Shown here: in pieces, positions 36,124 through 55,125 of the stretch
How the letters are laid out: every line of letters starts with the position of its first letter
Position numbering within the stretch: position 1 is the first letter of the stretch
Assembly (NCBI GenBank): GCA_041167305.1
Contig: JBEEHI010000138.1
Location: 1 to 55,134, forward strand
Source of the DNA: Verrucomicrobiota bacterium
Lineage (GTDB): Bacteria; Verrucomicrobiota; Verrucomicrobiia; Chthoniobacterales; UBA10450
Length of the DNA stretch: 55,134 nucleotides
Reading direction: 5' to 3'
Made by a program: the position numbers and the translations under genes
Notes under the pieces: generated by a model
What the model saw: the letters and a program-made list of their open reading frames with translations, nothing else
Database searches by the model: none
What the model was told of the DNA's origin: nothing

Positions 36124-37164
36124 TCAGCCCCGCGGGTGCGCGAAGATTGCAAACGTGGCCGTCGCGAAAATCGCGGGAAAGATCAGTCGGCAACAACGGT
36201 CAATTGTTTTCGCCAGGCGCGCGCGATGATTTGTCTCCAGAATTGTCGTCGTTATCACCTCGATGAGAGAAAAGAAGATGAGGACCGTCCCCATCAGAAT
36301 GAACCCATCCAGCCGCGTCATGTAAGGCAGACGAGGCAGTTGGTTGTCGGTGGCGAAACGATAGGCAATCAGGGTGAGCATTGAAGTGACCGCGATGTTA
36401 ATCTGCGCGCTGGAATGGATTGGATCCATCCAGAAGACCGCCCATGACATGATCACGATCAAAACAAGCGGAAACATTACTTTTAGAATGTAATGCGATA
36501 CATTGCGGGCTGCAGTGAATTCGAAGGCGTAACTGGAATACTGATGGCCCGGTGTCAGCGCATAGAGGAGCGGCTTGAGCTCCCATTTTTCTATGGTCCA
36601 ATCCGGCAGCGTAACTGTGGCGGCGATCCCGCCAGCCCCTTTAAATCCCTCCTGAATCCAAACCTGATCCGGGATGAATATTACTTCGTCGGACTGATAC
36701 CGAACCGCGACCAGCTGAACACGAAAAGTTTGCCGATCGAATGGGAACGATTGTAATCGCAAAGGCTGCGTGAAAGCCCCGACGTAACGTTGCCGATCAG
36801 TGACCGTGCCATCGGGATCGACTTCGACAGAGTCCGGCATTTTGCGGCTGACGGAATTTGTCTCATTCACAATCCCAACGCGCGGATGCCAAATCTGTTC
36901 GAGCGGGTAGCGCACAACTCCGTTGCCGGTGTGAACCAAACGAGGATCTTTCCAGCGCAACATGACAGCTATCTCCGCGGTGAACGTCTGTTGGGCGCTG
37001 TCGATACTACTGATATCGGCGACCCACATTCCGACCGAGATTTCGGTTGGGCCGGAGTCGGCGTTTGGCCGATCAATTAACGGAGGCGTTTCTGCACTGC
37101 TCGCCAGCTGGATCGACCTCACCAGAATGCTGACGACCAATGCCGAACAGAATCTCCTATTCAT
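36124..37164 (-). CDS. prokaryotic pentameric ligand-gated ion channel (Cys-loop receptor superfamily, GLIC/ELIC-like)
   Basis: 346 aa. Signal peptide. MLRWKDPRL, FPFDRQTFRVQL, M1-M2 YILKVMFPLVLIVIMSWAVFWMDP, and four TM segments. Confidence 0.85.
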   Translation of the reverse strand: MNRRFCSALVVSILVRSIQLASSAETPPLIDRPNADSGPTEISVGMWVADISSIDSAQQTFTAEIAVMLRWKDPRLVHTGNGVVRYPLEQIWHPRVGIVNETNSVSRKMPDSVEVDPDGTVTDRQRYVGAFTQPLRLQSFPFDRQTFRVQLVAVRYQSDEVIFIPDQVWIQEGFKGAGGIAATVTLPDWTIEKWELKPLLYALTPGHQYSSYAFEFTAARNVSHYILKVMFPLVLIVIMSWAVFWMDPIHSSAQINIAVTSMLTLIAYRFATDNQLPRLPYMTRLDGFILMGTVLIFFSLIEVITTTILETNHRARLAKTIDRCCRLIFPAIFATATFAIFAHPRG

Positions 37165-38788
37165 TGGAATGACCGAGATTCCTTTTCAAGATTCGCGCGA
37201 CTTCCCGAATGGCTTGCGGGTTGTACTGCGCTCCGTGATCTGAATTGACGATCAACTCCGAGCGCGCCCCCTCGAGGTGAGAGCTCCAGTATGGAACTAC
37301 ACCATCGGAACTGTTGGGTGTGTCGCCCCGGCCGCGGTCTCCCATGATCGAATGATAAGGAATAACCGGCGTAATCGGCACCTTGTTGACCGCTTGCACG
37401 AATCGATCGTTGGGTTCGAGCGTATCGACGCTATTCGGCATGCGATTAAGCCGCCGGGCCGCGGGATCGGTAATCAGAAGTGGCTTCGTCGAAGTGTAGA
37501 TTGATGTGAGGAACCGTGGAGTCCTGACGAAAGAGGCTCCGATGCGACCGATCCAACCCGAAGCGAGTTTGCTGCCGCGATGCGGCGTCGAGATGAAGAT
37601 TGCGCTCTCAACATCCGGGCGATGATTAAACACCAAAGTCTGTTCGAGAAGTTTGCGCGTGTCGCTCGCGAGTGGTGTTTTGGCTGGCGGCGTCGAAAAA
37701 TAATCCCGCCAGATTTTGTCGCCGGCGTCGGTGATCATTAACCGGCAGATCAGCCCGCCCATGCTGTGACCGATTAGGACGACTCGTTTGTGGTTGGGGA
37801 ACGCGCGCTTCACTCCGTCGAGCTCGCGCCGGAATAGCGCAGCCGAATAAGGGTAGGGATAACCGCTCGGATAGCTGAAAAACCAAAACTGATAATGTTC
37901 TCTTATCCAAGGATCATTGCGGAGCGTGTCGACCATTGGGGCCCAACTCGCGCCTGTTTCCTGCAAGCCGTGAACAAAAATCACCGGCGTCCGTGCGGGA
38001 TCGTACGGCTGCAGCTGATACAACCGTGCGGTGTCCGCGTACTTTTCCGGATTGAGCACGCGTGACAATCCGAGCCGCTCCGGCCGCTCACGCGCGATTA
38101 ACATTGCTGTCGGCGCGATAAGATCGCCAGCCAACGGAAAATTGCGTTTGCCTAGAGCAACTCGCTCCGACTTCATCGGATCGACAAAATCGAGTTCTGC
38201 GTTGGGGCCGGAGAATCGTATTGTTGCCGTGACCGGTGCGTAAACTCGCGGCAGCTTGTACTCTCGATGAAACCCCGGATTTTCTGAGCGAGCGACCGCA
38301 ACCAAAGGTGCGCCAAATCCGTTAATGGAAGAGCGCGTTTTGAAAAATTGCCCGCTGATCTTCAAACTGTCTGTCGGAAACAAATCGTGTCGACTCGGAT
38401 CGTGTTCCGGATCGAGAGGCTTGGGACTAGTGAGCAAGAAACTTCCTTGATTGAATGGGACATTGATCGCCTTGCGCCAGGGCTGCAGGTTCGCGCGCCC
38501 CACGTTTTCGACTGCGCGCGCAACAGAGAAGTTATAAATGCTTTGTGCCGACGAGTCGCTCGGCCGTCGTTCGAGCACGCTGAGCGATAACTTCGCGACC
38601 GAGAGATCGTTGCCCAGTGCGATCAACGGTTGTTCGCGTTCCGCGGCACTCAACTTTCGGGTTGCGACCGCAAGTTGTTCATCGCTCGCGGCAATCGTGG
38701 GAACGTGCGGCTCTGTCGTTTTCACCGTCGCGAGATGCGCACATCCGCAGAGAACCAATCCGCTGAACGCTAAGATCGACAGTTTCAT
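37157..38788 (-). CDS. alpha/beta-hydrolase lipoprotein (lipase/esterase-like)
   Basis: ATG 38788 (ATGA overlap with the FUSC stop). Lipobox LVLCGC. PVIFVHGLQETG and VVLIGHSMGGLI (GxSxG). Confidence 0.75.
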   Translation of the reverse strand: MKLSILAFSGLVLCGCAHLATVKTTEPHVPTIAASDEQLAVATRKLSAAEREQPLIALGNDLSVAKLSLSVLERRPSDSSAQSIYNFSVARAVENVGRANLQPWRKAINVPFNQGSFLLTSPKPLDPEHDPSRHDLFPTDSLKISGQFFKTRSSINGFGAPLVAVARSENPGFHREYKLPRVYAPVTATIRFSGPNAELDFVDPMKSERVALGKRNFPLAGDLIAPTAMLIARERPERLGLSRVLNPEKYADTARLYQLQPYDPARTPVIFVHGLQETGASWAPMVDTLRNDPWIREHYQFWFFSYPSGYPYPYSAALFRRELDGVKRAFPNHKRVVLIGHSMGGLICRLMITDAGDKIWRDYFSTPPAKTPLASDTRKLLEQTLVFNHRPDVESAIFISTPHRGSKLASGWIGRIGASFVRTPRFLTSIYTSTKPLLITDPAARRLNRMPNSVDTLEPNDRFVQAVNKVPITPVIPYHSIMGDRGRGDTPNSSDGVVPYWSSHLEGARSELIVNSDHGAQYNPQAIREVARILKRNLGHSNE

Positions 38789-39903
38789 TTTGCGTTTGCC
38801 GATTCGATTCGTTCGCGCTCGGGCCAAATGTATCGGAAGACGAATCCCGTGACGACGAGACCGAAGAGAATTCCAACGACACGATTGCGGACGTTATCGA
38901 GATCGGTATCGGGTGCGTAGCCTTGAAAGACGCTGTAAAAGAATGCGAACGCGATTTGGAAGCCGGCGTAGCTGGTCCGTTCGCTTCCGGTCGCAACCCA
39001 GCCCGCGATCGCAGTCGCACAAACAACAAGAACGACGAGCGACGCGATCGTCTCCATGTGCGGCGTGAGGAAAATGATGGAAGAAAGCGCGAGCGCTCCG
39101 CCGATCACGCACCCCACGATTCGCAGAGTGCCTTTGTAAAGCGTCGCCTTTGTGCTCTCCAGCGCGATGAATGTGCAGGTGATGAACGCCGTATGGATTC
39201 CCGTCCAATCGATCGACTCATAGACGATGTAGCAGAACATCGCGGCGAAAGTGACCTTAAGAGCGAAATGTAGGTGCGCCGGATTTGTGAATGCGTCCGG
39301 CACAAATAAACTATGCCCATCCGGTTCGGACTTTGGTTTGGGCAGTGCGGCGGTCTTCGGTGTGTCCGGCAAAAACAACAAGTTCAGCACGACGGTGACG
39401 GCGATGGCGTAGGCGATGGCTACCCAGAGCCATAGAAGGCCGCGAACCAATAGTTCGGGTGACCGAATCTCTTCGCCGACGGATTGGGAGATAGCCACAA
39501 CAAACCCGAGGAGGAATCCGAGTGGACCGATTACCAGGGCCCGCGACAACCACATTCCGAGAAACAGCGCGATTGCCATTCCGGGAATGCGCAATTCCGG
39601 ATGACCGTACGTGAACTTGTAAAGTAGAAGAGTGGCGCTAATGCCGACGGTCAGAACAATAATTCCACCGACCCCCGTAATTGTCGTGAGTAGCTTGCTC
39701 TCCTTCGAGATGAAGAAAACCATGTAGGCGCTTGTAGCCAGCTGCGGCACTTGGAGCGCCATCGAAATGATGACGCACAAAACCGCGCCGGCGACGATGA
39801 TGGCTGTTCGGATTTCGCGCGGGTGTGTCGGCGCCAGCTCGCTCTTTAACCAGCCGATCCAATTGGAATCAACCGCTTGGGGTTCTAGAAGTGTCGCGCT
39901 CAT
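38785..39903 (-). CDS. FUSC-family (AaeB-like) inner-membrane efflux protein
   Basis: ATG 39903, 4 nt after the HlyD stop. 372 aa multi-TM protein. ALKVTFAAMFCYIVYES...TLRIVGCVIGGALAL. Confidence 0.65.
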   Translation of the reverse strand: MSATLLEPQAVDSNWIGWLKSELAPTHPREIRTAIIVAGAVLCVIISMALQVPQLATSAYMVFFISKESKLLTTITGVGGIIVLTVGISATLLLYKFTYGHPELRIPGMAIALFLGMWLSRALVIGPLGFLLGFVVAISQSVGEEIRSPELLVRGLLWLWVAIAYAIAVTVVLNLLFLPDTPKTAALPKPKSEPDGHSLFVPDAFTNPAHLHFALKVTFAAMFCYIVYESIDWTGIHTAFITCTFIALESTKATLYKGTLRIVGCVIGGALALSSIIFLTPHMETIASLVVLVVCATAIAGWVATGSERTSYAGFQIAFAFFYSVFQGYAPDTDLDNVRNRVVGILFGLVVTGFVFRYIWPERERIESANAK

Positions 39904-42667: not shown

Positions 42668-43747
42668 CTACGCTGCTTGTGGAATGAGGACGGTGGTCGA
42701 AAGCTGTCGTGGCGCCGATCTCCAGCGGCTCTGCGCTTCTCCGGCCTGAAGTTTCTCCGTTATCGCCGCAACGTGCGCCTTGATGATTCGATCGCACGCG
42801 GTCAACTCCCGCTTACGAGCCTGAACACCCTGCCGAGCCACTGCCTCCAGATCATCTATATTAAATAGAGAAACGTGATCGAGTCCGGTCACATCCGGAT
42901 CGATGTTACGCGGCACGGACAGATCGATGAGCAGCAGCGGGCGATTCCGCCGTGCCTTCATTAGATTCTCGATATCGTCGCAACTCAACAAGGTCTTAGC
43001 GCTGCTCGTCGCAGCGACGACAACGTCGACCTTGCGCATTTCAAAAAGGCAATAACCGAAACAGACCGCGTTTCCGCCGCATCGGTTAGCCAGATCGATT
43101 GCGCGATCGAAGGAGCGACTCGAAACGAAGATCGAGCGGACACCTTTGCGGACCAGCGATTGGACGCAGCGTTCAGCCATATCGCCGGCGCCGATTACCA
43201 TTACTGATTTGTCGGCGAGCTCGTCGCTGAAAGCTTTCTCGATCAACTCAATCGCGGTGCTCTTAATTGAAACTGTGCCGCGACCGATTGCTGTGCGCGT
43301 GCGAATCTCCTTGGCCGCCTGAAAAGCTCTTTGGAACAAACGGTTCAATACTGGCCCGGTCAGTCTGGCTTCACGCGCAGTCTCATAAGCATTCTTGATC
43401 TGGCCGGTGATTTCGGTTTCGCCGAGCGTCATCGAATCCAATCCGGCCGTGACTTTAAATAAGTGACGCGCGGCCTCGGCGTCCCTGTGAACATAGATAT
43501 ATGGATCTAAATCGATCGGCTCGGAGGACAGGAGTTTCAGAGCCGACTTAATGCGATCGATCGACTGTTGCGTCGTTCCGTAAATTTCGACGCGATTGCA
43601 GGTTGAAAGCAGGACCACTTCATCTAAATGGCGAAACCACTTCAGATAGTGCGCAACATCGACCAGTTCGTTGCGTTGCACCGCCAGTTGCTCGCGAACT
43701 TCCACCGGCGCGGTTTTGTGACTGATTCCCGCGACGAAGAATTTCAT
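42668..43747 (-). CDS. hemA: glutamyl-tRNA reductase
   Basis: MKFFVAGISHKTAPVEVREQL...LSTCNRVEIY...VIGAGDMAE. At 359 aa it has a short C-terminus. Confidence 0.85.
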   Translation of the reverse strand: MKFFVAGISHKTAPVEVREQLAVQRNELVDVAHYLKWFRHLDEVVLLSTCNRVEIYGTTQQSIDRIKSALKLLSSEPIDLDPYIYVHRDAEAARHLFKVTAGLDSMTLGETEITGQIKNAYETAREARLTGPVLNRLFQRAFQAAKEIRTRTAIGRGTVSIKSTAIELIEKAFSDELADKSVMVIGAGDMAERCVQSLVRKGVRSIFVSSRSFDRAIDLANRCGGNAVCFGYCLFEMRKVDVVVAATSSAKTLLSCDDIENLMKARRNRPLLLIDLSVPRNIDPDVTGLDHVSLFNIDDLEAVARQGVQARKRELTACDRIIKAHVAAITEKLQAGEAQSRWRSAPRQLSTTVLIPQAA

Positions 43748-43748
43748 A

Positions 43749-45143
43749 TCAATTCCTCAAAATAGATGCAGAGGTGAGAGGTTGCGGCGCTCGGTCATTC
43801 GCGACCACTATTGGTGGCGCTGCCGGATTAGCTTCGGATTCGTGATAATTCACGATCAACCGCGAACCGCGGTGTCCGGTCAGGAACAACCAGCCCCATT
43901 GTAAGAAGACGCTGACCTTCAAACTAAGCTGAGCGAGAAAAGTGATGTGAATGAAAGCCCAGCCGAGCCACACGATGAGACCGTGCAGCCGAAGTTTACC
44001 GCTCTGAAGAACTCCGTAACCCTTGCCCACGACAGCCATGGTGCCTTTGTCGAAATAGCGAAACGGTTTTGGCGCCTTCTTGCCGGCAAGTTGGCGGCAA
44101 ATCAGTTTGCCAGCGTAGCGTCCTTGTTGCATTGCAACCTGAGCGACTCCCGCCAGCGGTTTCCCGTCCTGGTCGAGCGAGGCCGTATCGCCGATCACGA
44201 AAATTTCCGGATACTTTGGAACTCGAAGATCGGGTTGAATGCGAACGCGACCAGCGCGATCGGTCTCCACCCCTAACCATTTTCCGGCAGGGGAAGGCGT
44301 GACACCGGCGGTCCAGATCACTGTCTTGCTCGCAATTCGCTCGCCTGCGACAATGACTCCTTCGCTGTCGATCTTCTCAACGGCGTGGCCCAGGTGGACT
44401 TCAACTCCCAGCTTTTGCAGATGGGACTCCACTGCCTCAGACAGACTCGGGGCAAAAGTGCCAAGGACGTTTCGAGCCGCATCGATCAAAACAATTCGTG
44501 CTGAACTCGGATCGATCCGGCGGAATTCGGAACGTAATGACGTTCGAACGAAAATAGCGAGCGCCGCCGCCATCTCGACGCCGGTTGGTCCGGCCCCGAC
44601 CAAAACGAAGGTCAACAAATCGCGGTGAAGATCGACATTTTCTTCGGCCTCGGCCTGTTCAAACGCGCTGAGGATTTTGTTCCGGATACCGACGGCATCG
44701 GCCACGCTTTTCAAGCCCGGAGCAAACTTTTCAAATTCGTTGTGTCCGAAATAACTGTGACGCGCCCCGGTGGCGAGAATGAGGTAGTCGTAAGGCACCG
44801 GCACCTGCTCGCGATCCGCATTGTTTACAAAAACGCAGCGTTGCGCTTTATCCACCCCCGTGACCTCGCCCATGATCACCGTTGTGTTTTTATGTCTTCG
44901 CAATACTTCACGAATTGGCGAACTCATCTGCGACGGCGCGAGGACTGAGGTAGCTACCTGGTAAAGAAGCGGCTGAAAAACATGATGGTTCGTCCGGTCA
45001 ATGAGAATGACTTCGACCGGCGTTTTCCCAAGGGCTTTGGCCGCAGCCAGACCACCAAAACCGCCGCCGACGATCACCACCCGCGGCGTCTTCGACGTCT
45101 GCGCATCCGCGCCATTGATAGAATTGAGATTCGAATCGTTCAT
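43749..45143 (-). CDS. ndh: type II NADH dehydrogenase (NDH-2)
   Basis: PRVVIVGGGFGGLAAAKAL, LVGAGPTGVEMA, and a C-terminal membrane-anchoring helix. Confidence 0.85.
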   Translation of the reverse strand: MNDSNLNSINGADAQTSKTPRVVIVGGGFGGLAAAKALGKTPVEVILIDRTNHHVFQPLLYQVATSVLAPSQMSSPIREVLRRHKNTTVIMGEVTGVDKAQRCVFVNNADREQVPVPYDYLILATGARHSYFGHNEFEKFAPGLKSVADAVGIRNKILSAFEQAEAEENVDLHRDLLTFVLVGAGPTGVEMAAALAIFVRTSLRSEFRRIDPSSARIVLIDAARNVLGTFAPSLSEAVESHLQKLGVEVHLGHAVEKIDSEGVIVAGERIASKTVIWTAGVTPSPAGKWLGVETDRAGRVRIQPDLRVPKYPEIFVIGDTASLDQDGKPLAGVAQVAMQQGRYAGKLICRQLAGKKAPKPFRYFDKGTMAVVGKGYGVLQSGKLRLHGLIVWLGWAFIHITFLAQLSLKVSVFLQWGWLFLTGHRGSRLIVNYHESEANPAAPPIVVANDRAPQPLTSASILRN

Positions 45144-45149
45144 TCACTC

Positions 45150-45181
45150 CTTTCTCAAGCTTTCGAGCCCCGAAATTTCAG
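45150..45181 (-). promoter_or_regulatory. conserved 32-nt leader motif, copy A (CTGAAATTTCGGGGCTCGAAAGCTTGAGAAAG), 6 nt upstream of the ndh ATG
   Basis: Read directly. 28/32 identical to copy C and 27/32 to copy B. Confidence 0.7.
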
Positions 45182-45257
45182 AGAATCTTGTTTTTCTCGC
45201 AGACCGTGATGGTCAGTTCAGCGGTACGTGTTTAGCTGCGAACAGACGGCCGCCTTA

Positions 45258-45503
45258 TCAGGCGAGCCAGAAACTGATAAGAAGAATCAGGATAAGTGTG
45301 GTTATCCCTAACCACGGGATGAGAAACAGCTCGACTCTGACATGGCGCGCGGCCGGAAAATCGTTGTCGACGTTCGCGTCGCGGTCAAAGAATCGGTGAC
45401 GATTGCGAAAGACGTATACGCCTCCCGCCAGGTAGATGAGAAAGAAGAAGGTCGCCGCGATTCGCAGAGCAGGAAGAGCTGCCGGATTAATCAGTGCGAT
45501 CAT
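45258..45503 (-). CDS. small two-TM membrane protein
   Basis: ATG 45503 forms an ATGA overlap with the CoA-transferase stop. 81 aa with two hydrophobic helices. Confidence 0.5.
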   Translation of the reverse strand: MIALINPAALPALRIAATFFFLIYLAGGVYVFRNRHRFFDRDANVDNDFPAARHVRVELFLIPWLGITTLILILLISFWLA

Positions 45504-47044
45504 TTTCCGTTCGGAAGCCACTCGGGTTTGCTAGACCCACGCGGAACCAGGACCGTGCGGTAGGCTCCCGGTGTGCGAGACATAACGATTTGGTCCATCA
45601 TTCCCTGATAAGTTCCAAGCGGCGTTTCCGCGGTGAAAAGATCTGGATCGATCAACATGTGTTCATCGCTCGAGCCAGCGGTCGCCTTTGCATACTCCTT
45701 GTTGAAGATGCCTAACGAGAGCATCCAAAGCACTGTCCTCGTCAGCGAAACTACGACGCGATAGCTACCGCCTTCGATCGCGCGCCGGCGCAAGGCAGCG
45801 AGGATTCCGGTTGTGCCTAACCAACCGACCACATTATCGCAGATGGGTACAATTGGCGGCTGCTTCGGCTGAGTTGGAGAACCTTCGATGGCAAAGAGAC
45901 CGGAAACTGCGGAGCCAATCTCATCGAAACCGGGTCGGTTCGACCACGGTCCTTTCTCACCGTGGAGAACAACGGTCGCGTGAATCAACCCGGGCTTGCG
46001 CTGGCAAAGCGCATCGGCATCCAGGTCGTGCTTCTTCAAGAATCCCGGACGCTTGTTGGCAAAAAATACATCGGCATCTTGAAGCAGCTGGTTAAACCGT
46101 GCCCGATCTTCCTTCGAATCATCGAGTATCGTTGAGCGCATGCCCACTTGGACATCCCAAGCGAAGGCTTCGATCTCCGAATCGCGCGGTCTCCAGATGT
46201 TGAGCACATCCGCGCCGTATAGAGCCAGATCTCGACCTATGGCAGCTCCGGCGATCACGTGACCCATTCCCAATGCGCGGACACCAGCAAGCGGAAGATT
46301 ATCGATCGGCTTGAGCGGAACAGGATCGCTCTCGCCAATCTTTTCCACTGTGATCAGCGGCATTTTTGAGAGAACGCCGGTGTATTGGGGTTCCCGACGA
46401 AATTCCTCATTCGTCCGCACCATTGCCAGAACCAGCCCCTCTGCCGCAGCAGCCTGTTCCAGTTCCAGAGCGTTCCATTTGAGTATGGCGGCGTTAATTG
46501 ATTCCTGGCTCGGGCTGCAGCCGAGAAAATTGAGGGTGTCTACGAGGAGTTTAGGATAGATGTCCAGAGCCAGGACGTGTCGCCCATCTCGTGTTTCGCG
46601 AAAGAACGGGCCCGTCAGGAAAGGACTAACGGCATAGCCACCTGGGGAAGGCGGCCGTCCATTGATAGTTTCCCATTTGCCGTCAAAGAATCCGTAGAAA
46701 CGTCGCAGCGCTTTGCGCACGTCGACCGAGATATCCTGTCCTTCGCCGGTGGTCTGTCTCCAAAGTGCGGCTAGAGCAACGCTTCGTGCGGCGAGACCCA
46801 CAGCGGCCATCGTCCCGAACCGCACTGGGCTTGGAAGAATCGGATCTTGCCCGTAAAAGCTAAGCCTTCCGCCGGAATCATCGGTTGTCATGCCGATATC
46901 TGTGAGGACGCCATTCACACATTCGTGCAGGTCGATATCCGGCGACGTTGCCGGATGACCTAGCTTCAGTTCCAGCGCGTCAGTCAATCGATCGGTTGCT
47001 GCGCTCGTCTCACTCGATGGTGTAGTTATCGTCGCGGTGCTCAT
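45500..47044 (-). CDS. family III CoA-transferase (CaiB/BaiF family)
   Basis: ATG 47044 is preferred over GTG 47083, which would translate the conserved leader motif. LSFYGQDPILPSP...VFFANKRPGFLKKHDLDADAL. Confidence 0.75.
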   Translation of the reverse strand: MSTATITTPSSETSAATDRLTDALELKLGHPATSPDIDLHECVNGVLTDIGMTTDDSGGRLSFYGQDPILPSPVRFGTMAAVGLAARSVALAALWRQTTGEGQDISVDVRKALRRFYGFFDGKWETINGRPPSPGGYAVSPFLTGPFFRETRDGRHVLALDIYPKLLVDTLNFLGCSPSQESINAAILKWNALELEQAAAAEGLVLAMVRTNEEFRREPQYTGVLSKMPLITVEKIGESDPVPLKPIDNLPLAGVRALGMGHVIAGAAIGRDLALYGADVLNIWRPRDSEIEAFAWDVQVGMRSTILDDSKEDRARFNQLLQDADVFFANKRPGFLKKHDLDADALCQRKPGLIHATVVLHGEKGPWSNRPGFDEIGSAVSGLFAIEGSPTQPKQPPIVPICDNVVGWLGTTGILAALRRRAIEGGSYRVVVSLTRTVLWMLSLGIFNKEYAKATAGSSDEHMLIDPDLFTAETPLGTYQGMMDQIVMSRTPGAYRTVLVPRGSSKPEWLPNGK

Positions 47045-47058
47045 TGGTTGTTCCAATT

Positions 47059-47090
47059 CTTTCTCAAGCTTCCAAGCCCGCACATTTCAG
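47059..47090 (-). promoter_or_regulatory. conserved 32-nt leader motif, copy B (CTGAAATGTGCGGGCTTGGAAGCTTGAGAAAG), 14 nt upstream of ATG 47044
   Basis: Read directly. Confidence 0.7.
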
Positions 47091-47184
47091 AAAAGCGTGA
47101 GATTTTTTTGGCGAGCCTTATGCAAAACACCGGAAAACCAGACTTCGTCGGCTAATCGCCTGGAGTGCTCAGCGATATAAGGCG

Positions 47185-48675
47185 TCAGGCGACGGCCCGT
47201 TCCTGGCGCGCCCAGGCGGCCTCACGCAAAACGCGTTTTAGAATTTTGCCGGAGCCGCTCTTCGGCAGCTCGGTCCCCGAGAACTCGATGCTCCGCGGGA
47301 CCTTGAAAGTGGCGAGCGATCGCCGGCAATAGGCGATCAACTCTTCCGCAGTTAGGGTTTCTCCCGGCTTGAGAACAACGAAAGCCTTCACCATTTCCCC
47401 CCACCTTGGATCCGGTATTCCGAAGACCGCCACTTCGCGCACCGCTGGATGCGTGTAAATCACAGCCTCGACTTCACCGGAATAAACGTTCTCCCCGCCG
47501 GTGACGATCATGTCTTTCAACCGATCGAGAATGTAGAAGTAGCCCTTTGCATCCTGATAGCCGACATCGCCGGTGCGAAAGAAGCCGTTCCGGAATGCGC
47601 CGTCTGTCTCGCCCGGGTTGTTCCAATAACCGCGCATGATATTCGCACCGCGAGCGACCAACTCGCCAGTTTTCCCAATTTCGACTTCGTTTCCTGTTGG
47701 ATCGACAACGCGCACGTCGATTCCCGTACATGGACGCCCGCAGGACGTGAGTTTGTCCTCGGTGTGCTCACCGTCTTTCAAGCCGGTGAGGAACCCGGCT
47801 TCACTCAGTCCGTAGACCTGAACAAGTTTAACCTTCGGCAAAACCTGCCTGGTGTGGTGCACGAGTTCCGGCGCCATTGGAGATCCGCCGTATCCGAAAT
47901 GCCGAAGAGTCGATAGGTCATACTTCTGCAGCTCCGGAGACTGCGTCAGCATATTGATCATGGTTGGGACCAGGACAGTGTGCGTGACCTGTTCGCGTTG
48001 GACTGTCTCGCAGAAAGTTTCAGGGCTGAACTTTGGGATCGTGACCTGACAGGTGCCGAAAGCCGCGGCGGCGAACATGAAAGGAAAATCCGCGATGTGA
48101 AAAATCGGCGCGGCATGTAAATGGACCGCGCCTTCTTTAAGCGGGAACCAGAAGTGGGTGTGATAGACGTTCTCCAGAACATTTGCGTGCCTGATCTCGA
48201 CGCCTTTCGGCCGGCCCGTTGTCCCACTGGTATAGATAAGAGCCAGGATGGCGTGTGGATCGTAAATTGGATCCGAAATGGAGTCGCTTTGAATGTCCAG
48301 CGGGTCTTGATCGAGTACCGCCTGCCATGAAACTTGCACAGTCGGGACCGGCAGCGACGAATGGCGAATCAATCCGCCCGGCTTGGCATCGTCGAGGATG
48401 CCGTCAATTTCTTTGACTGAGAGCCGCGTGTTTAATGGTAGCGCTGTGACGCCGAGCCAGGCGCACGCATAGACGAACTCGATGTAATCGGGCTCATTGG
48501 GAAGAAGAATGGCCAACCGGTCTCCCGCTTTGAAGCCATGTTTCGTCAATGCGGCAGCAATGCGCCCGACGCGATCGTGTAGCTCGCGGAAAGTTAACCG
48601 TGTTCCGTTTGCGGCAAGCGCGGCGCGTTCCGGAAAATATTGGGCAGCCCGTCCTAAAGAGTGGACGTAAATCAT
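47185..48675 (-). CDS. AMP-dependent acyl-CoA synthetase/ligase
   Basis: 496 aa. LIYTSGTTGRPKGV, GYGGSP, TGDVGYQD, SGKILKR. Confidence 0.85.
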   Translation of the reverse strand: MIYVHSLGRAAQYFPERAALAANGTRLTFRELHDRVGRIAAALTKHGFKAGDRLAILLPNEPDYIEFVYACAWLGVTALPLNTRLSVKEIDGILDDAKPGGLIRHSSLPVPTVQVSWQAVLDQDPLDIQSDSISDPIYDPHAILALIYTSGTTGRPKGVEIRHANVLENVYHTHFWFPLKEGAVHLHAAPIFHIADFPFMFAAAAFGTCQVTIPKFSPETFCETVQREQVTHTVLVPTMINMLTQSPELQKYDLSTLRHFGYGGSPMAPELVHHTRQVLPKVKLVQVYGLSEAGFLTGLKDGEHTEDKLTSCGRPCTGIDVRVVDPTGNEVEIGKTGELVARGANIMRGYWNNPGETDGAFRNGFFRTGDVGYQDAKGYFYILDRLKDMIVTGGENVYSGEVEAVIYTHPAVREVAVFGIPDPRWGEMVKAFVVLKPGETLTAEELIAYCRRSLATFKVPRSIEFSGTELPKSGSGKILKRVLREAAWARQERAVA

Positions 48676-48685
48676 GGCAGCGTCC

Positions 48686-49735
48686 CTAGTAGAAGCCTTG
48701 TATGTCGCGCCGGACGCTTACCTTTCCGGCGTAGCGTCGCGAGATGAAGACGAAATAGAATACGGCCAGCGCGAAAGCGATCGGCCACCAAAAGCCCGCG
48801 CGAAGCAAAGTGGTCGGACTGGATGCCAAGGCATAAGCGCTTAACGAATTCTCGGGCGCGAGTGTCGAATGAAGCATCACGGGAAAAATCGCGGCCGCTG
48901 CAGTAGCTAACAGACCGACAATGAGAAAGTTTGATCCCACGAAAGCTCGCAGTTCGCGACCGCTCTTCAGGGCGGTGAGCAGCGTGAACCCTGAGGCAGC
49001 AATCACGATCAATCCGAGCCACCAAAATGGATTGGACCAGGCGCGTCCTGGCAGATCGGGACGCACGATTCTCGATTCAATCAGGACTCCGGCGAGCAAT
49101 GGGAGAACCGCGATCCAAAGATATTTCGCCCATTTTTCCGAACGATCGTGCACCGGGCCTTCAGTTTTAAGCGTTAGATAGGTGGCGCCATGCGCCGCTA
49201 GCATGACAACGGCGAGAATTGCAATCGAAACGGTGTACCAGTCGAGCAGACCGACATGGCCGCGGACATTGAAGTCGGTGAAAAACGCCATCGAGAAATT
49301 CCCTTGCGCGTCCACCGGAACGCCGCGCGCGACGTTGCCCGCAGCTGCACCGAAAAGAATCGCGAGAAGAAAATTGGAAAAAACGAAATTGAAGTCCCAA
49401 TATCCCTGCCAAAGGCGATCATTGATGTGCCCGCCGACTTCGATCGAAACTCCGCGCAGAATCAAGCACCACAAAATCAGAAAGAGGGCGAGATAATAAC
49501 CGGCAAAAGCCGAAGCCATCAGGCGCGGGAAGATCGCGATCAATGTTCCGCCGAAACCGAGGAGCCATACCTCATGCCACGTCCATAACGGCCCGATCGC
49601 AGCGATGACTTGTCGGCGTTCGTCCGGAGTCTTGGCGACAAACCGCTGTAGCATCCCGGCGCCGAAGTTACGTCCGTCCAGAACGACGTAGATGATCAGC
49701 ATGAGACTAACTGCGGCGTACCATGCGGCGATCAT
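48686..49735 (-). CDS. cydB: cytochrome bd ubiquinol oxidase subunit II
   Basis: 349 aa multi-TM protein. VLDGRNFGAGML. ATGA-type overlap with cydA. Confidence 0.85.
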   Translation of the reverse strand: MIAAWYAAVSLMLIIYVVLDGRNFGAGMLQRFVAKTPDERRQVIAAIGPLWTWHEVWLLGFGGTLIAIFPRLMASAFAGYYLALFLILWCLILRGVSIEVGGHINDRLWQGYWDFNFVFSNFLLAILFGAAAGNVARGVPVDAQGNFSMAFFTDFNVRGHVGLLDWYTVSIAILAVVMLAAHGATYLTLKTEGPVHDRSEKWAKYLWIAVLPLLAGVLIESRIVRPDLPGRAWSNPFWWLGLIVIAASGFTLLTALKSGRELRAFVGSNFLIVGLLATAAAAIFPVMLHSTLAPENSLSAYALASSPTTLLRAGFWWPIAFALAVFYFVFISRRYAGKVSVRRDIQGFY

Positions 49736-51105
49736 ACGAGCACCGCCTCTCTTTGGTCGACAACTAGGGTCGCTTCTTCTTCAGGCCCCTCTGCGATCTC
49801 GCGGCCGGTTAGGCCGAGAAAAAGCAGACCGATTACAAAATATAACCCGGTGAACCCAATCAGGGTGAAGATCGCGTCCCCGTTGCTGACGACTTTGCTG
49901 TAACCATCACGCGTGTGAAACAGGCCGTAGATCAACCACGGCTGCCGTCCCAGCTCCGCGGTCATCCAACCAAGGGTGTTGGCGATGTAAGGATACGGAA
50001 ACGCCAACATCAAAATCCAAAGCAATAAGCGGCTTGATTCGAGTTTCCCACGCCAGTTCAGCAACGTGGCAAAGCCCATCAGCGCGATGAACAGCGTTCC
50101 GAGGGTGATCATGATGTGAAACGAGTAGTAGAGAAGCTCAAGATTGTCCGGCCATTGATCTTTCGGGAAATCGTTCAAACCGTGGACAAAACTTCCGAAG
50201 TGGCCGTAGGCGAGAAAACTCAGTGCGCCCGGAACTTCGATCGGATTATCGAGCCGCTGCGCGGCAACATTCGGTTGACCAATGAGCGTGACACCCGCCA
50301 TTGGTCCGCCTTCGAACTTTCCCTCCATCGCCGCAAGCGTGATCGGTTGATGATTGCCCACCATCTTGGCTTGCTGGTCACCCGTCGGAAAGGCAACGAG
50401 CAGCGATGCGATCAAACCAACGAAAGTTCCCGCGCCTAAATAAAGTTTGGCTTGGACTGGATGAAGACCGCGTAATGAGTAGAACGCTCCAATCGCAGCA
50501 ACGACAAACGAGCCGGTCACGACCGCGGCCAATTGATTATGCGCGAATTGCACAAACGCCCACGGATTTAAAAGATAGGCGCTCATGCTGGCGATGCCTA
50601 ACGAACCGTTCGCTTCGATCTGATAACCAACCGGATGCTGCATGAACGAATTCGTGACCAGAATGAAATAACCCGAGAGCCAACTCCCGAGCGCAACCGC
50701 TAACGCCGCGGCAAAATGGCCGCGCGGTCCTAATCGTTTTTCGCCCCAGATCAGGGCGCCGACGAACGCGCTCTCCATGAAGAACGCGAACATCCCTTCC
50801 ATGGCCAGCGTTTGGCCAACCGCGCCGCCGGCATACTTCGAAAAATCCGCCCAGTTCGTTCCGAACTGAAATTCCATCGGAATGCCCGTCACGACACCGA
50901 CGGCAAAATTAAGTCCGAATATCTTGGCCCAAAACCGGACGGCCTGATTGTATTTCTCGTCCCCAGTTCTGATCGCACGCCATTTCCAGTAAACGATGAA
51001 CAACGCCAGTCCCATGGTGAGCTGCGGAAAGAGGTAGTGATAGACGATCGTGAACCCGAACTGTAGCCGGTGCCAAAAGCCCGGATCGTTAAAGATCGAG
51101 TTCAC
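49732..51105 (-). CDS. cydA: cytochrome bd ubiquinol oxidase subunit I
   Basis: 457 aa. RLQFGFTIVYHYLFPQLTMGLA, GIPMEFQFGTNW, GWMTAELGRQPW. Confidence 0.9.
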   Translation of the reverse strand: MNSIFNDPGFWHRLQFGFTIVYHYLFPQLTMGLALFIVYWKWRAIRTGDEKYNQAVRFWAKIFGLNFAVGVVTGIPMEFQFGTNWADFSKYAGGAVGQTLAMEGMFAFFMESAFVGALIWGEKRLGPRGHFAAALAVALGSWLSGYFILVTNSFMQHPVGYQIEANGSLGIASMSAYLLNPWAFVQFAHNQLAAVVTGSFVVAAIGAFYSLRGLHPVQAKLYLGAGTFVGLIASLLVAFPTGDQQAKMVGNHQPITLAAMEGKFEGGPMAGVTLIGQPNVAAQRLDNPIEVPGALSFLAYGHFGSFVHGLNDFPKDQWPDNLELLYYSFHIMITLGTLFIALMGFATLLNWRGKLESSRLLLWILMLAFPYPYIANTLGWMTAELGRQPWLIYGLFHTRDGYSKVVSNGDAIFTLIGFTGLYFVIGLLFLGLTGREIAEGPEEEATLVVDQREAVLV

Positions 51106-51114
51106 GGTCGATCC

Positions 51115-52086
51115 TTACGCAGCTGCTTGTTTCGTCTTTGTCGCGCGGTTGTTGGTCTGCGCGCGCAACTGAAGAAGTCCGATGATCACCTCGTTCTCGT
51201 CCTGTGCGAGTTCGTCCACGGAACGATTGCCAGCTTCGCGCAAGACTCCGTCGACGATCGTTTGTTTGAGCTCCGGCGTAACATCTGGAGTGCCGAGAGT
51301 TTTGATCATTCCCACCAGGGGATCCATCAGATGATCCATGAAGTGTTTAATGCCGCCGGCGCCACCGCCGAGATGCCATTGTAAACTCGGCCCCATTACT
51401 CCCCAACGAGGTCCCGGGCCGTAGCTCACCGCAACGTCCGCGTCCTCGACGCTCAGCACGTCGTGCTGAATCAGATACATGATCTCCTTGTAGAGTGCCG
51501 CCTGGAGCCGGTTACCAACATGACCGGGAAGCTCCTTTTTCAATTCGATCGGTTTCTTCCCGATCGACGCGTAAAACGCGAGCGCCTGTTGAATCGCCTC
51601 CGGCGACGTCTTCGTTCCTCCGACAACTTCGACTAACGGAATGATATGCGGTGGGTTAAACGGATGTCCGACGAGAATCCGCTCCGGGTGCTTGCATTTT
51701 GATTGCATTACGCTCGGCGTAATTCCCGACGAGCTCGACGCGATGATTGAATCGACGGGAGCGGCATCGTCCATGTCCGCGAACAGCTTCATCTTGAAAT
51801 CCGGACGCTCCGGTCCGTTTTCCTGAACGAAGTCCGCTTTCGACAAGGCTTCCTTCATATCCGTCGTGAACGTGAGACGATCGCGGGATGCGCCTTTGGA
51901 AAGGCCGACGTTCGTCAGATCCTTCCACGCTTCATCAACGTATTTGCGCAAATTGGCTTCGGCGTTCGGTCCGGGATCGGTCACGATGACATCAAATCCA
52001 CGCGCCAGGTATTCGGCGGCCCAACTGGCGCCGATGACTCCAGCGCCTACAATGGCGATTCTTTTAATAGGTTTGTTGTATGACAT
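51115..52086 (-). CDS. 3-hydroxyacyl-CoA dehydrogenase family protein (L-carnitine dehydrogenase-like)
   Basis: IAIVGAGVIGASWAAEYLARGFDVIV, VQENGPERPDFK, VGHPFNPPHIIPLVEVV. Confidence 0.75.
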   Translation of the reverse strand: MSYNKPIKRIAIVGAGVIGASWAAEYLARGFDVIVTDPGPNAEANLRKYVDEAWKDLTNVGLSKGASRDRLTFTTDMKEALSKADFVQENGPERPDFKMKLFADMDDAAPVDSIIASSSSGITPSVMQSKCKHPERILVGHPFNPPHIIPLVEVVGGTKTSPEAIQQALAFYASIGKKPIELKKELPGHVGNRLQAALYKEIMYLIQHDVLSVEDADVAVSYGPGPRWGVMGPSLQWHLGGGAGGIKHFMDHLMDPLVGMIKTLGTPDVTPELKQTIVDGVLREAGNRSVDELAQDENEVIIGLLQLRAQTNNRATKTKQAAA

Positions 52087-52186
52087 GGTGAATTTTCCTT
52101 TTTTTGTATTTGGTTAGTCGCTTGAACGATGGATTTAAATTTTGTCGGATAGGGACGTTTTCTGCGTTGGTGTCATCGCGTCCATT

Positions 52187-52786
52187 TTAGGTGTGCAACC
52201 GGTTGGCAATAGTCGCGACATGTTTGCCTTGAAACCGCGCCATCGCGAGCTCGATGGCCGATGGTTTTCGCGAGCCGTCGGGCCCGGCGACGGTTGCCGC
52301 GCCGTAAGGCGAACCACCTCTGAATTCCGAGATATTGGTTAGTTCAGGACACGAATAAGGTAACCCGACGTAAATCATGCCGAGATGCAGCAGGGTCGGA
52401 ATAAAAGTGAGAATGGTGGATTCATTCCCGCCTCCGGTGCCAGTGCTGGCAAACACGCTAGCGACCTTGCCGATGAGCGAACCCTGGACCCAAAGTCCGC
52501 CCGTCTGATCAAGGAAATTGCGCATCTGCGCCGCCATGTTGCCGAACCGCGTCGGCGTACCGAAAATAATGGCGTCGTAATTCGCCAGTTCCGCCGGCGT
52601 GGCGACTGGCGCCGCCTGATCCAATTTCGCTCCCGCCTTGCGCGCGATTTCTTCAGGCATCAATTCCGTGACGCGCTTTACTGTGACCTGAACGCCTTCG
52701 ACGGACTTCGCTCCTTCAGCGATCGCGCCTGCCATCGCTTCGATATGACCATACATGGAATAGTAGAGAACTAATAGTTGGGTCAT
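52187..52786 (-). CDS. wrbA: NAD(P)H:quinone oxidoreductase, flavodoxin-like
   Basis: [22 protein letters not shown]...[27 protein letters not shown]. Confidence 0.85.
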
Positions 52787-52830
52787 GACTCGAAGTTGGT
52801 GGTTGGTTGTGAATTGTTAATGGCGTTGTG

Positions 52831-53766
52831 CTAGGACATTTCCGCGTAAGCAATTCCGGTGAGATTTCCCTGCGCGACCAGGAGCGGTTTCTTTTCCGTG
52901 CCGTCAAGCTTGGCGGAGAAAATGTTGCCGGCTAAATCGGTGATGAACATCCGGTTCCCTTTGAAATCGAGAGCGATCCCGATTCCTTCCATTAGATGCG
53001 TGAGCAAAATATCCGGTGTCGGATGTTTGGTGAAATCGGCATCCAGCGACGCGCGGCTTACCGTGTTTCCGCGCGGAGGATCTCCGCGGTCGGTCCAATA
53101 CAGGAACCGATTCTTCAGATCGAGCTCGAGATCGATCGGCTCCGGCAAACCATCGAACAACAGTTCGATATCGGTGCGGGCGGCCGCGGTCTCGCCTTTC
53201 GGGATTTCGATATTCGCCCGAAAGATGCGGCCCTTGCCCGCGTCGTCAGGACCTTTTTGCGTCCAGTAAATTTGTCCACGATCCGGATCGACCGTGATCC
53301 CGACGCACCATTTCGTCGCGTCGGTGCCTGGACGCGCGGCGCCCTTGCTGGAGTCGACCAGAGTTTCGATGTTCGAACCATCCAGGTTCGCGCGCATCAC
53401 GCGCATGCCTTCGCGATCGCACCAGTAAAGTTTGCCGCTCTTCTTCTCGAGATGAAGTTGCTTTGGCGTGAATGTCTTGCCTTCGCCGACGATGGTTGCG
53501 CGATTCTGGCCGTCTAGGTCGGCGCGCTCGATCGAACCGTCGTTTTGGCTCGGCACACCCATGTTGGTCCAGTAAATGTGTCCGGCTTCAAGATCGACGA
53601 CGACGCCATCCGGAATTCGAGCTCCGCTGAGAATGACTTTCCGGTCCGATCCATCGGCATTAGCCGAATGAATCCCGCCGCCGCTCGCTTCGAGAAAAAA
53701 TAGTCGGCCAGTCGCTGTTTTGCTGCTGGTTGGACGCTTTGCTTTTAAAGTTTCAGTTGCACTCAT
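52831..53766 (-). CDS. six-bladed YWTD (LDL-receptor class B-like) beta-propeller protein
   Basis: 311 aa. Repeated IYWTNMG, LYWCDREG, IYWTQKG, LYWTDRGD and MFITDLAG. No obvious signal peptide. Confidence 0.65.
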   Translation of the reverse strand: MSATETLKAKRPTSSKTATGRLFFLEASGGGIHSANADGSDRKVILSGARIPDGVVVDLEAGHIYWTNMGVPSQNDGSIERADLDGQNRATIVGEGKTFTPKQLHLEKKSGKLYWCDREGMRVMRANLDGSNIETLVDSSKGAARPGTDATKWCVGITVDPDRGQIYWTQKGPDDAGKGRIFRANIEIPKGETAAARTDIELLFDGLPEPIDLELDLKNRFLYWTDRGDPPRGNTVSRASLDADFTKHPTPDILLTHLMEGIGIALDFKGNRMFITDLAGNIFSAKLDGTEKKPLLVAQGNLTGIAYAEMS

Positions 53767-53772
53767 ATTTTC

Positions 53773-55125
53773 TTACCTCTTTCTCAAGTTTTCGAAGCCC
53801 GACATTTCAGAGTTTGTTAAGGCTGGGCTCGGAATTAAATCGCCCAGCTCAAATCGCCGCGCTCCTTGTGCGGAAAATTTTGGCAACACCGGCATGAATC
53901 CTTCGAGCACTTCAAGCATCGCTCCGTCATCAAAATCCATTCGGTAACGCGCCAGTTCTGAAACCGTGATCATCACCAGCTTGTGCTTCTTGCAGAAGCG
54001 GATGAGATCCGGCACGCGGGCCATCGTGCCGTCATCATTGACGATCTCGCAGATCACGCCGGCGGGAGAGAGTCCCGCAAGGCTGGCGAGATCAACTGCG
54101 GCTTCCGTTTGGCCGCGGCGCTCCAGGACGCCGCCGTCCCGGGCGCGAAGCGGGAAAACATGTCCCGGTCGCGCGAAGTCGTCCGAACAAGTGCTTGCGT
54201 CAGTGACGGCCAGAATGGTTTGCGCCCGATCGCGGGCCGAAATCCCCGTAGTCACGTCAGCTCCTTTCACGTCAATCGAAACCGTGAACGCGGTCCCGCC
54301 CAACGCGGTGTTGTCTGGCGACATCGGGGCGAGGTCCAACTCATCTAGCCTCTCGCCAGTCATGGCCAGGCAGATCAGTCCCCGTCCGTGCATGGCCATG
54401 AAGTTGACGGCCTCCGGTGTGATCATTTCCGCCGCCATCGTTAGGTCGCCTTCATTCTCACGGTCTTCATCGTCCACCACGACGATCATGCGTCCGGCCT
54501 GAAGCTCGCCAATCGCCTCCTCAATGCTTGCGAACTCGAAGTCCTCGTCATGCTCCGTGTTTTCTTGAGGACCGAGCCTTAGCGCGTGCCCCATCTTTTC
54601 CTTTTTGGTCCGCAGGTAAGCAAGGGAGTGCAGTGTTGGCGTGGCTTCGCAAGGAACTTGGGCGACGACCTCGATGCCGGAATCAACCAACGCGCGGGTT
54701 TTGCTGGGGTTATTCGAGAGAAGCCGGATTCGACTGAGGCCCAGGTCATGCAAGATCGCGGCCGGCAGACTGAAATCGCGGCAATCAGCCGCGAACCCCA
54801 GGGCACGATTTGCTTCAACCGTATCCAGACCACCGTCCTGCAGCGCGTAGGCCTGCAACTTCGCCGACAGGCCAATGCCACGGCCCTCCTGATATTCGTA
54901 GATCAGCAACCCGCGGCCCTCCTCAGCGATGGCTTGCATGGCCATCTCCAACTGGTCCCCACAGTCACACCGCATTGACCCGAGCATCTCGCCCGTAACG
55001 CATTGCGAATGGATGCGCACCAACGGAACGCCCGTGGTCACATCGCCCAGAACAAGCGCCAGCGCGGTGTCAATCTGGTGGACGCCGTTGACTATGTCGC
55101 GCTCGAACCCCAATGCTCGAAACAT
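53773..55125 (-). CDS. ribAB: bifunctional GTP cyclohydrolase II / 3,4-dihydroxy-2-butanone-4-phosphate synthase with reversed (RibA-then-RibB) domain order
   Basis: N-terminal VRIHSQCVTGEMLGSMRCDCGDQL...EYQEGRGIGL (GCH II). C-terminal GRMIVVVDDEDRENEGDLTMAAE...HGRGLICLAM (DHBPS). The start at 55125 is 9 nt from the window edge, so the N-terminus is uncertain. Confidence 0.8.
   Translation of the reverse strand: MFRALGFERDIVNGVHQIDTALALVLGDVTTGVPLVRIHSQCVTGEMLGSMRCDCGDQLEMAMQAIAEEGRGLLIYEYQEGRGIGLSAKLQAYALQDGGLDTVEANRALGFAADCRDFSLPAAILHDLGLSRIRLLSNNPSKTRALVDSGIEVVAQVPCEATPTLHSLAYLRTKKEKMGHALRLGPQENTEHDEDFEFASIEEAIGELQAGRMIVVVDDEDRENEGDLTMAAEMITPEAVNFMAMHGRGLICLAMTGERLDELDLAPMSPDNTALGGTAFTVSIDVKGADVTTGISARDRAQTILAVTDASTCSDDFARPGHVFPLRARDGGVLERRGQTEAAVDLASLAGLSPAGVICEIVNDDGTMARVPDLIRFCKKHKLVMITVSELARYRMDFDDGAMLEVLEGFMPVLPKFSAQGARRFELGDLIPSPALTNSEMSGFENLRKR
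53779..53810 (-). promoter_or_regulatory. conserved 32-nt leader motif, copy C (CTGAAATGTCGGGCTTCGAAAACTTGAGAAAG), 12 nt upstream of ATG 53766 and inside the 3' end of the ribAB ORF
   Basis: Read directly. Confidence 0.7.

Follow-up and report, generated by a model that had tools for sequence, protein, structure and literature searches.

A conserved bipartite element, possibly a promoter of the alternative-sigma type, heads 22 gene families in soil Chthoniobacterales

The stretch of DNA analyzed here, 55,134 nucleotides from a Verrucomicrobiota bacterium of the order Chthoniobacterales (GenBank assembly GCA_041167305.1, contig JBEEHI010000138.1) and hereafter termed the window, carries three copies of a 32-nt element immediately upstream of ndh, a CoA-transferase gene and a gene for a YWTD propeller protein. 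Without a match in Rfam, the element belongs, as a lineage-specific regulon signal, to a kind that is familiar in general terms, and it stands ahead of 22 gene families on more than 130 contigs of soil Chthoniobacterales (Verrucomicrobiota), comprising the orthologues of the three window genes and at least 19 other gene families. Tentatively, and with somewhat less than even confidence, we propose from its conservation and geometry that it is a lineage-specific, regulon-defining promoter of the alternative-sigma type, read at the DNA level.

Results

Three copies in the window

A preliminary description of this DNA had reported three 32-nt copies, A, B and C, on the minus strand, and all three were recovered with the same letters at the same coordinates (Table 1). 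Recounted by hand, their pairwise identities are also as first given (28/32 for A and C, 27/32 for A and B, 25/32 for B and C), with no indels. A degenerate pattern allowing up to three mismatches matches exactly three sites in the window, against 0.00 expected from 100 dinucleotide-preserving shuffles, and a position weight matrix scan and an nhmmer scan of both strands found no further copy in it. Each copy is followed by an ATG within the 6-14 nt originally proposed: 6 nt for copy A (open reading frame, ORF, 43749..45143), 14 nt for copy B (ATG at 47044) and 12 nt for copy C (ORF 52831..53766). The genes had been correctly named, as their Pfam matches are Pyr_redox_2 (NDH-2) for the ndh product, CoA_transf_3 for the CoA-transferase, Ldl_recept_b for the YWTD protein, and GTP_cyclohydro2 together with DHBP_synthase for the ribAB ORF (53773..55125), in the final 12 codons of which copy C indeed lies. 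The TAA stop of this ORF is located 3 nt past copy C, which lacks the usual A-tract flank and has orthologous counterparts in loci L098, L135 and L136.

Distribution and conservation

When species-representative genomes were scanned with a 21-base pattern, 13 sites were obtained in 11 stretches, of which 12 sites belong to Verrucomicrobiota/Chthoniobacterales metagenome-assembled genomes (MAGs); the thirteenth, in a Rhodospirillales MAG, has no gene behind it and is probably a chance match. Metagenome contigs, largely soil contigs from the Joint Genome Institute (JGI), contributed at least 120 stretches with the pattern. Among the matches listed, 60 of the 143 exact-pattern instances lie ahead of ndh orthologues, always with the ATG 6 nt past the motif, and 47 ahead of CoA-transferase orthologues, usually with the ATG 14 nt past it, the remaining instances having other genes behind them. 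A profile search of the fetched DNA added some 38 further diverged copies. In the three 21-kb loci L135-L137 there are about 20 copies in total, including clusters of small genes with one copy per gene.

Clustering of the downstream proteins yields the 22 families mentioned above. Beyond the three of the window, these include by Pfam a catalase-related protein, a short-chain dehydrogenase/reductase (SDR), a MaoC dehydratase and an acetoacetate decarboxylase, and further an alpha/beta-hydrolase lipoprotein, a K-channel-like membrane protein, an 81-94-aa membrane protein, a multi-copy peptide of 37-39 aa with a single transmembrane segment and several small ORFs of unknown function. The preliminary description had envisaged co-regulation of respiratory and flavin-linked genes; the sharing of an element by such genes is upheld, but the proposed set was too narrow in view of the catalase-related, SDR, MaoC, acetoacetate decarboxylase, hydrolase and small membrane proteins.

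Evidence for selection also comes from orthologues fetched by protein, independently of the motif (7,972 proteins with E below 1e-100 in the case of NDH-2). All of the ndh and YWTD orthologues obtained in this manner carry the element, while the sequence upstream of about position -20 is unrelated between contexts. Hence, the element is real and under selection. In the literature on promoters or RNA motifs of Verrucomicrobia, Udaeobacter or Chthoniobacter we found no description of it.

The same observations bear on the notion of a dispersed selfish or recombination-prone repeat without regulatory role, such as a sequence of the repetitive extragenic palindromic (REP) type, a remnant of a miniature inverted-repeat transposable element (MITE) or a cassette junction. 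Such a repeat would account for the many copies per genome (up to 7-8 in 21 kb) and for the different genes found behind the ndh-type copy in different genomes, but the copies contain neither terminal inverted repeats nor a palindrome, they never occur at 3' ends or inside genes, save in the last codons of an upstream gene, and they persist ahead of the same orthologues despite complete divergence of the flanks. Moreover, every real copy is oriented as the next gene, with an ORF starting no more than 32 nt on; start codons could be assigned for 180 of about 190 copies, at about 3-32 nt past the motif. We therefore attach almost no credence to this notion, in line with the preliminary description, which had not recognized the motif as a REP element and had named a ubiquitous repeat without bias towards start codons as the outcome that would overturn it.

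Several arrangements of the copies deserve mention in their own right. The ndh-type copy, together with about 45 nt of its upstream flank, stays at the locus behind the CoA-transferase and small gene, and the genes after it vary (L123, L001, L021, L008, L053): in L123 it is followed by catalase-related, K-channel-like and SulP-like genes, a second copy then preceding ndh, and in L001 and L021 by a 115-aa ORF and a second NDH-2. Tandem copies about 215 nt apart occur in L102 (8097 and 8315) and L135 (210 and 425), the first leading into a conserved ORF of 46-47 aa (MHT..SGNLTxFDRIV..YRWHLAGVWRExHPVH) and the second into the alpha/beta-hydrolase lipoprotein gene, the window homologue of which (37157-38827) has no copy. 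The genes for the multi-copy 37-39-aa peptide (MKTNxxAxDSGWxVSFWFAVSSPLLGVLVGLLAxxIFxR) each have a copy of their own, with the ATG at motif position 37-38, and are often missed by gene callers.

Anatomy of the element

Aligned across families (48 representative sequences; motif positions are those of the 32-nt core, negative numbers denoting the upstream flank), only two blocks are constant: TGAAAT at positions 2-7 and (AAGC)TTGAGAAA at positions 20-31. In the first block, A4, A6 and T7 never vary, and conservation at positions 2, 3 and 5 reaches 90% or more; in the second, T24-G28, A30 and A31 never vary. Block 1 has shoulders at T9 and in a T-rich stretch of the flank at -4..-1, whereas position 1, G12-G13 and positions 10-19 as a whole are variable. 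The distance between the blocks hardly changes: of 191 copies (108 distinct sequences), 189 have exactly 16 nt from TGAAAT to TTGAG, one has 15 nt and one 17, with no other value across the range of 10-24. On the upstream side, the only conserved features are an AAGWTTYT box at -8..-1 and an A-rich patch at -17..-13; on the downstream side, purines predominate at positions 33-40 and T is frequent at 36. Reading of the sequences disclosed no dyad symmetry beyond 5 bp.

Start codons and the Shine-Dalgarno question

No family has a start codon before motif position 35. The modal start lies at 35 in six of the 22 families, at 37 in three, at 38 in two and at 39 in one, so that 12 start at 35-39; the others start at 41, 45 (two families), 47 (two), 48, 50, 55, 58 and 63. 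In the families starting at 35-39 there is nothing between motif and start codon, and no Shine-Dalgarno (SD) sequence. A separate AGGA or GGGAG at 37-42, at normal SD spacing, is common among the families starting at 45-50, as seen in the CoA-transferase, the SDR, the 73-aa and 115-aa proteins and the L108 member of the 81-94-aa membrane-protein family. SD sequences are little used in these contigs on the whole: GGAG is found upstream of about 15% of unambiguous starts.

These distances decide on the 3' end of the motif, GAGAAAG, which the preliminary description took to feed into the SD region. Because start distances vary and other families have their own AGGA or GGGAG, GAGAAAG is not a general SD sequence: about half of the 22 families start 3-7 nt past the motif with no SD, and others carry a separate one downstream of it. 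An extended version of the same idea, in which GAGAAAG is an SD or translational enhancer pairing with the 16S rRNA tail and the rest of the element is kept by common descent, can point to the purine-rich character of the region, to its vicinity to start codons and to AGAAAGGAG of copy A, complementary over 9 nt to the usual 16S 3' tail, CCUCCUUUCU (the general tail, not that of this lineage). Yet the invariant core is TTGAG rather than GGAGG, the aligned spacing of 3-7 nt would be too short for pairing with the 16S tail, and the equally invariant block 1, 17 nt upstream, would be left unexplained. Given also the variable distance to the start and the weak use of SD sequences overall, we regard this idea as very improbable.

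Tests for an RNA leader

At gathering thresholds, Rfam gives no match anywhere in the window, and in E-value mode the region 45000-47300 gives only two chance-level matches to unrelated families (E 2.6 and 9.1), which bears out the earlier statement that the element is not a known riboswitch. With RNAalifold, neither the 120 unique sequences nor the 48 cross-family representatives gave a consensus structure. Flanked or not, the window copies show no gain in folding stability over dinucleotide shuffles (z from -0.9 to +0.8), and their minimum-free-energy structures differ among the three. Mutual information in the alignment mainly reflects the division into ndh-type and CoA-transferase-type copies.

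Among individual helices, 1-4/9-12, 7-14/22-29 (register 36) and 14-16/21-23 are not conserved across families, nor is an outer stem between the U-rich flank and GAGAA or AGGGA; the register-36 helix, predicted for the commonest ndh variant, does no better than with shuffled partners. Only helix 15-19/24-28 is compatible with most sequences, with pairing in 87% of cells and in no more than 55% for slid controls. It shows no compensatory double changes, all variation being one-sided and the 3' arm invariant, its mean pairing probability is 0.10 and it is broken in several families (L102, L094 and L134, for instance). An RNA structure is thus conceivable but unsupported. Of the options put forward in the preliminary description, the shared cis-element at gene heads stands, while the leader or processing-site readings found no backing in structure or covariation. 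Transcript-like contigs starting at the element were sought and not found: contig ends do not pile up near the motif, and the two short Logan contigs are ordinary genomic fragments.

A conserved but unstructured 5' untranslated region (5'-UTR) is a different matter. Transcription would then start near -8, and 40-45 nt would be read by an RNA-binding protein, a small RNA or an RNase controlling translation or stability of the regulon. The boundary of conservation at about -8 could mark such a start, and the AAGWTT box at -8..-3 has A in second and T in sixth place in 71% of copies; the roughly 23 conserved positions run into the purine-rich 33-40 beside the start codon; positions 15-19 vary almost only within pairing with the invariant U24 U25 G26 A27 G28; and orientation is strict, always near a start codon. 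On the other side, besides the folding results given above, including the broken hairpin 15-19/24-28, no upstream offset has TAnnnT in more than 3% of copies and there is no -35, copy C has coding sequence where the flank would be, and a distance to the start codon of 3-31 nt argues against a fixed ribosome-binding role. We consider such a leader possible but doubtful. On this account, which in its boldest form we rate no higher, the element might be a new class of unstructured RNA leader of about 45 nt in a respiratory/stress regulon that includes the 37-39-aa peptides, read by a dedicated regulator, small RNA or RNase.

Genes and gene strings behind the copies

From 55125 down to at least 36124, every gene is encoded by the minus strand, and in the gene strings of the window copies are found at the first gene only, the internal genes having none (Table 1). 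The unit behind copy A probably continues into the efflux genes, ndh and hemA being followed by genes for outer-membrane efflux (OEP), membrane-fusion and FUSC proteins, then by those for an alpha/beta hydrolase and a homologue of pentameric ligand-gated channels (Pfam); the gene order of the unit recurs in L132 and L102. The string behind copy C, with tight spacing, encodes the YWTD protein, a flavodoxin/FMN reductase, a 3-hydroxyacyl-CoA dehydrogenase (HCDH), CydA, CydB and an AMP-binding acyl-CoA synthetase, an order that recurs in L135 and L136.

Table 1. Coordinates of the element copies, their proposed parts and the units behind them (window positions unless a locus is named)
Feature	Position	Strand	Remarks
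Copy A, core	45150-45181	minus	sequence as first described
Copy A, full element	45144..45201	minus	A/T-rich flank 45182-45201, core and 6 nt to the ndh ATG
Copy A, block 1 (TGAAAT, motif positions 2-7)	45175..45180	minus	proposed -35-like element
Copy A, block 2 (TTGAGAAA, motif positions 24-31)	45151..45158	minus	proposed -10-like element and discriminator
Copy A, predicted transcription-start zone (motif positions 35-38)	45144..45147	minus	predicted from geometry and start-codon clustering at 35-39
ndh ATG	45141-45143	minus	behind copy A
Unit behind copy A	42668..45143	minus	NDH-2 43749-45143; glutamyl-tRNA reductase, hemA, 42668-43747
Copy B, core	47059-47090	minus	sequence as first described
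Copy B, full element	47053..47110	minus	block 1 47084-47089; block 2 47060-47067
CoA-transferase ATG	47042-47044	minus	behind copy B
Unit behind copy B	45258..47044	minus	family III CoA-transferase 45500-47044; small membrane protein of about 80 aa 45258-45521
Copy C, core	53779-53810	minus	sequence as first described
Copy C, element	53773..53810	minus	block 1 53804-53809; block 2 53780-53787
YWTD ATG	53764-53766	minus	behind copy C
Unit behind copy C	47185..53766	minus	from Pfam and ORF spacing
37-39-aa peptide site, L010	reverse-complement index 3623	minus	
37-39-aa peptide site, L135	~2637		
37-39-aa peptide site, L136	2633		
37-39-aa peptide sites, L137	5169 and 8174		

Some neighboring features are of interest by themselves. 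The CoA-transferase gene overlaps at its end with the small membrane-protein ORF of the copy B unit (..LINPAALPALRIAATFF..NVDNDxPA..LILILLISFWLA), which belongs to no Pfam family; homologues of this ORF in other genomes (81-94 aa) have copies of the element of their own. In the bifunctional riboflavin enzyme upstream of the YWTD gene (window 53773-55125, minus strand; L135 7809-9149), GTP cyclohydrolase II is N-terminal and DHBP synthase C-terminal, an inversion of the domain order usual in RibBA; the ORF of the enzyme in the window reads through copy C. The flank of copy C (53811-53822, minus strand) reads CCTTAACAAAC and resembles the boxA antitermination consensus, CTTTAACAA, probably by coincidence. 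At the end of the ndh-side string, 36124-37164 on the minus strand encodes a homologue of pentameric ligand-gated ion channels (Neur_chan_LBD and Neur_chan_memb), and 13389-20105 on the plus strand is a giant ORF of 2238 aa. There are no tRNA genes in the window, and hence no tRNA-gene promoters for comparison.

Discussion

A proposed promoter read by an alternative sigma factor

From the conservation and architecture of the element, and from its position and orientation relative to genes, we infer how it may be read. Bipartite blocks with a fixed spacer suggest that the element is read as DNA, as a promoter or operator, rather than as RNA, and two blocks 16 nt apart reproduce the geometry of sigma-70-family promoters (-35, a spacer of 16-17 bp and -10). 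Since the blocks miss the housekeeping consensus and the element is limited to a subset of genes, an alternative sigma factor would be its natural reader. In the proposed arrangement, block 1 (TGAAAT) would serve as a -35-like element and block 2, TTGAGA(AA), as a -10-like element across the invariant 16-bp spacer, and the A/T-rich flank (about -20 to -1) might act like an UP element, given that the A-rich -17..-13 and T-rich -4..-1 would fit UP-element positions if transcription starts near 36. The candidate reader would be ECF-like (extracytoplasmic function) or group-3-like.

The start codons suggest where transcription might begin. Their floor at 35, their cluster at 35-39 and the presence of an own SD in families starting at 45-50 argue for a start zone at about 35-38 and not for a fixed ribosome-binding element. 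Transcription would thus start some 5-9 bp past block 2. Genes with the start codon at 35-39, such as ndh and many small genes, would be expressed from leaderless mRNAs, and those with the start codon further on, such as the CoA-transferase gene and the YWTD-cydAB operon, would have leaders of 5-25 nt with their own SD. In the window, this would define three co-regulated units: YWTD-flavodoxin-HCDH-cydAB-acyl-CoA synthetase, CoA-transferase with the small membrane protein, and ndh-hemA.

The promoter proposal is further supported by the restriction of copies to the first genes of strings and by their strict orientation. A search for a sigma-70 promoter (TAnnnT) at a fixed upstream offset gave no peak at any offset, the weak AAGWTT box being the only feature there, which leaves no fixed upstream promoter able to drive the motif as a 5'-UTR. 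In addition, the gene set resembles a stress/redox regulon, with NDH-2, cytochrome bd, a catalase-related protein, a WrbA-like flavodoxin, an SDR and small membrane proteins.

A number of points weigh against this proposal. TTGAGA conforms neither to TAnnnT nor to the -10 of CGT type seen in known ECF promoters and is a 5/6 match to the -35 consensus TTGACA, a likeness in view of which the -35/-10 assignment may be wrong. The roughly 23 conserved positions, among them T9, Y-Y-Y-R-R at 15-19, A20-A21, C23 and the purine-rich 33-40, exceed what sigma contacts need, and the pairing of 15-19 with 24-28, with its wobble-tolerant, one-sided changes, would matter only in RNA. Across the window and 663 kb of loci, no sigma or anti-sigma gene was detected among the ORFs that reach 70 aa (phmmer with E. 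coli RpoE as query, no hit with E<1), so that an autoregulated ECF operon with the motif is not seen there. Finally, leaders this short for all of these genes would be unusual, and the other genes of the contigs show no obvious leaderless signal.

The surplus of conserved positions would also suit a transcription factor that binds yTGArA-type direct repeats about 22-23 bp apart (a flank element, block 1 and block 2) over a weak, unrecognized promoter and represses or activates the regulon, for example in an oxygen or redox response. Block 1 (CTGAAA) resembles block 2 (TTGAGA), the flank at -20..-10 often holds a third GAAAT- or GAGAAA-like element some 21-22 bp upstream, and the combination of ndh, cydAB and hemA recalls the redox regulons of Rex, FNR and ArcA. 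Nonetheless, the blocks are non-palindromic and match by eye no operator consensus of Rex, FNR/CRP, HAIR or Fur/PerR, a spacing of 23 bp is not an integral number of helical turns, and no conserved regulator gene lies beside the element across loci. The single orientation and the fixed distance to the earliest starts look imposed by a promoter, beyond what an operator needs. We accordingly deem such a factor unlikely, if less so than a translational enhancer or a selfish repeat.

Several established signals were compared with the element and set aside. A consensus scan for housekeeping sigma-70 promoters (TTGACA, 16-18 bp, TATAAT) gave no site at or beside the three window copies: CTGAAA is a 4/6 match to TTGACA, and TTGAGA, 16-17 bp downstream, lacks A in second and T in sixth place. 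For a sigma-54 promoter (TGGCAC-N5-TTGC), G12-G13 is not conserved across families, the distance from GG to TTG is 10 nt instead of eight and the next base is A, not C. The HspR operator (HAIR) is CTTGAGT-N7-ACTCAAG, of which only the half-site-like CTTGAG is present, no copy having ACTCAAG 7 nt downstream. By eye, there is no match to sigma-32, FNR/CRP or Rex sites, to the Bacteroidetes -7/-33 motif or to integron attC.

Significance

Chthoniobacterales of this kind are very abundant in soil metagenomes, and to our knowledge almost nothing is known about gene regulation in them. A sharply defined cis-element offers a computational handle on one regulon of a dominant, uncultured soil group, covering redox, respiratory, lipid and stress genes. 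This regulon connects NDH-2 with the cytochrome bd operon and heme synthesis, with CoA and fatty-acid enzymes, and with a catalase-related protein and tiny membrane peptides. It also flags small genes that are real but uncalled, and it makes the regulator, be it one sigma factor or another regulator, directly searchable. If the promoter proposal is true, the specificity of the sigma factor would be TGAAAT-N16-TTGAGA, driving mostly leaderless genes, and we know of no description of such a specificity for any phylum. If transcription starts where predicted, leaderless expression would be used for a stress regulon in the Verrucomicrobiota.

Comparison with known systems

With REP and bacterial interspersed mosaic elements (BIME) the element shares only the character of a short sequence repeated many times in intergenic DNA; unlike them, it is non-palindromic, lies at 5' and not 3' ends of genes, in a single orientation, and is kept ahead of orthologues. 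The cold box and upstream box of the E. coli cspA family, which lie within mapped 5'-UTRs of about 160 nt with separate promoters, are likewise long, conserved, largely unstructured stretches directly upstream of co-regulated coding regions, but the element has no discernible upstream promoter and is bipartite with a fixed spacer.

A further parallel is found in leaderless genes of Actinobacteria and Deinococcus-Thermus, where the -10 box precedes the start codon by about 7 nt. Similarly, 12 of the 22 families start 5-10 nt past the -10-like block, with no SD between. The differences are that this block is not TAnnnT, that some members have short leaders with an SD, and that the other genes of the contigs lack a general leaderless signature.

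As for ECF promoters, that of the ECF11 RpoE-ChrR system has the consensus TGATCC-N16-CGTA (PMC5507510). The blocks of the element, TGAAAT and TTGAGAAA, contain no AAC in the -35 and no CGT in the -10, which only lowers the claim, known ECF -10 elements being diverse. They are also longer, at about 11-13 nt each with their shoulders, and no motif-bearing sigma/anti-sigma operon was found with the RpoE query in the loci and the window. The architecture itself agrees well: as in ECF (group 4) promoters, two short invariant blocks flank a rigid, variable spacer of 16-17 bp, here held at 16 nt in all but two of 191 copies, in strict orientation, ahead of 22 gene families and at the first genes of strings only. 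Together with a limited stress/redox regulon and a lineage-specific consensus, this makes ECF promoters the closest architectural analogue of the element.

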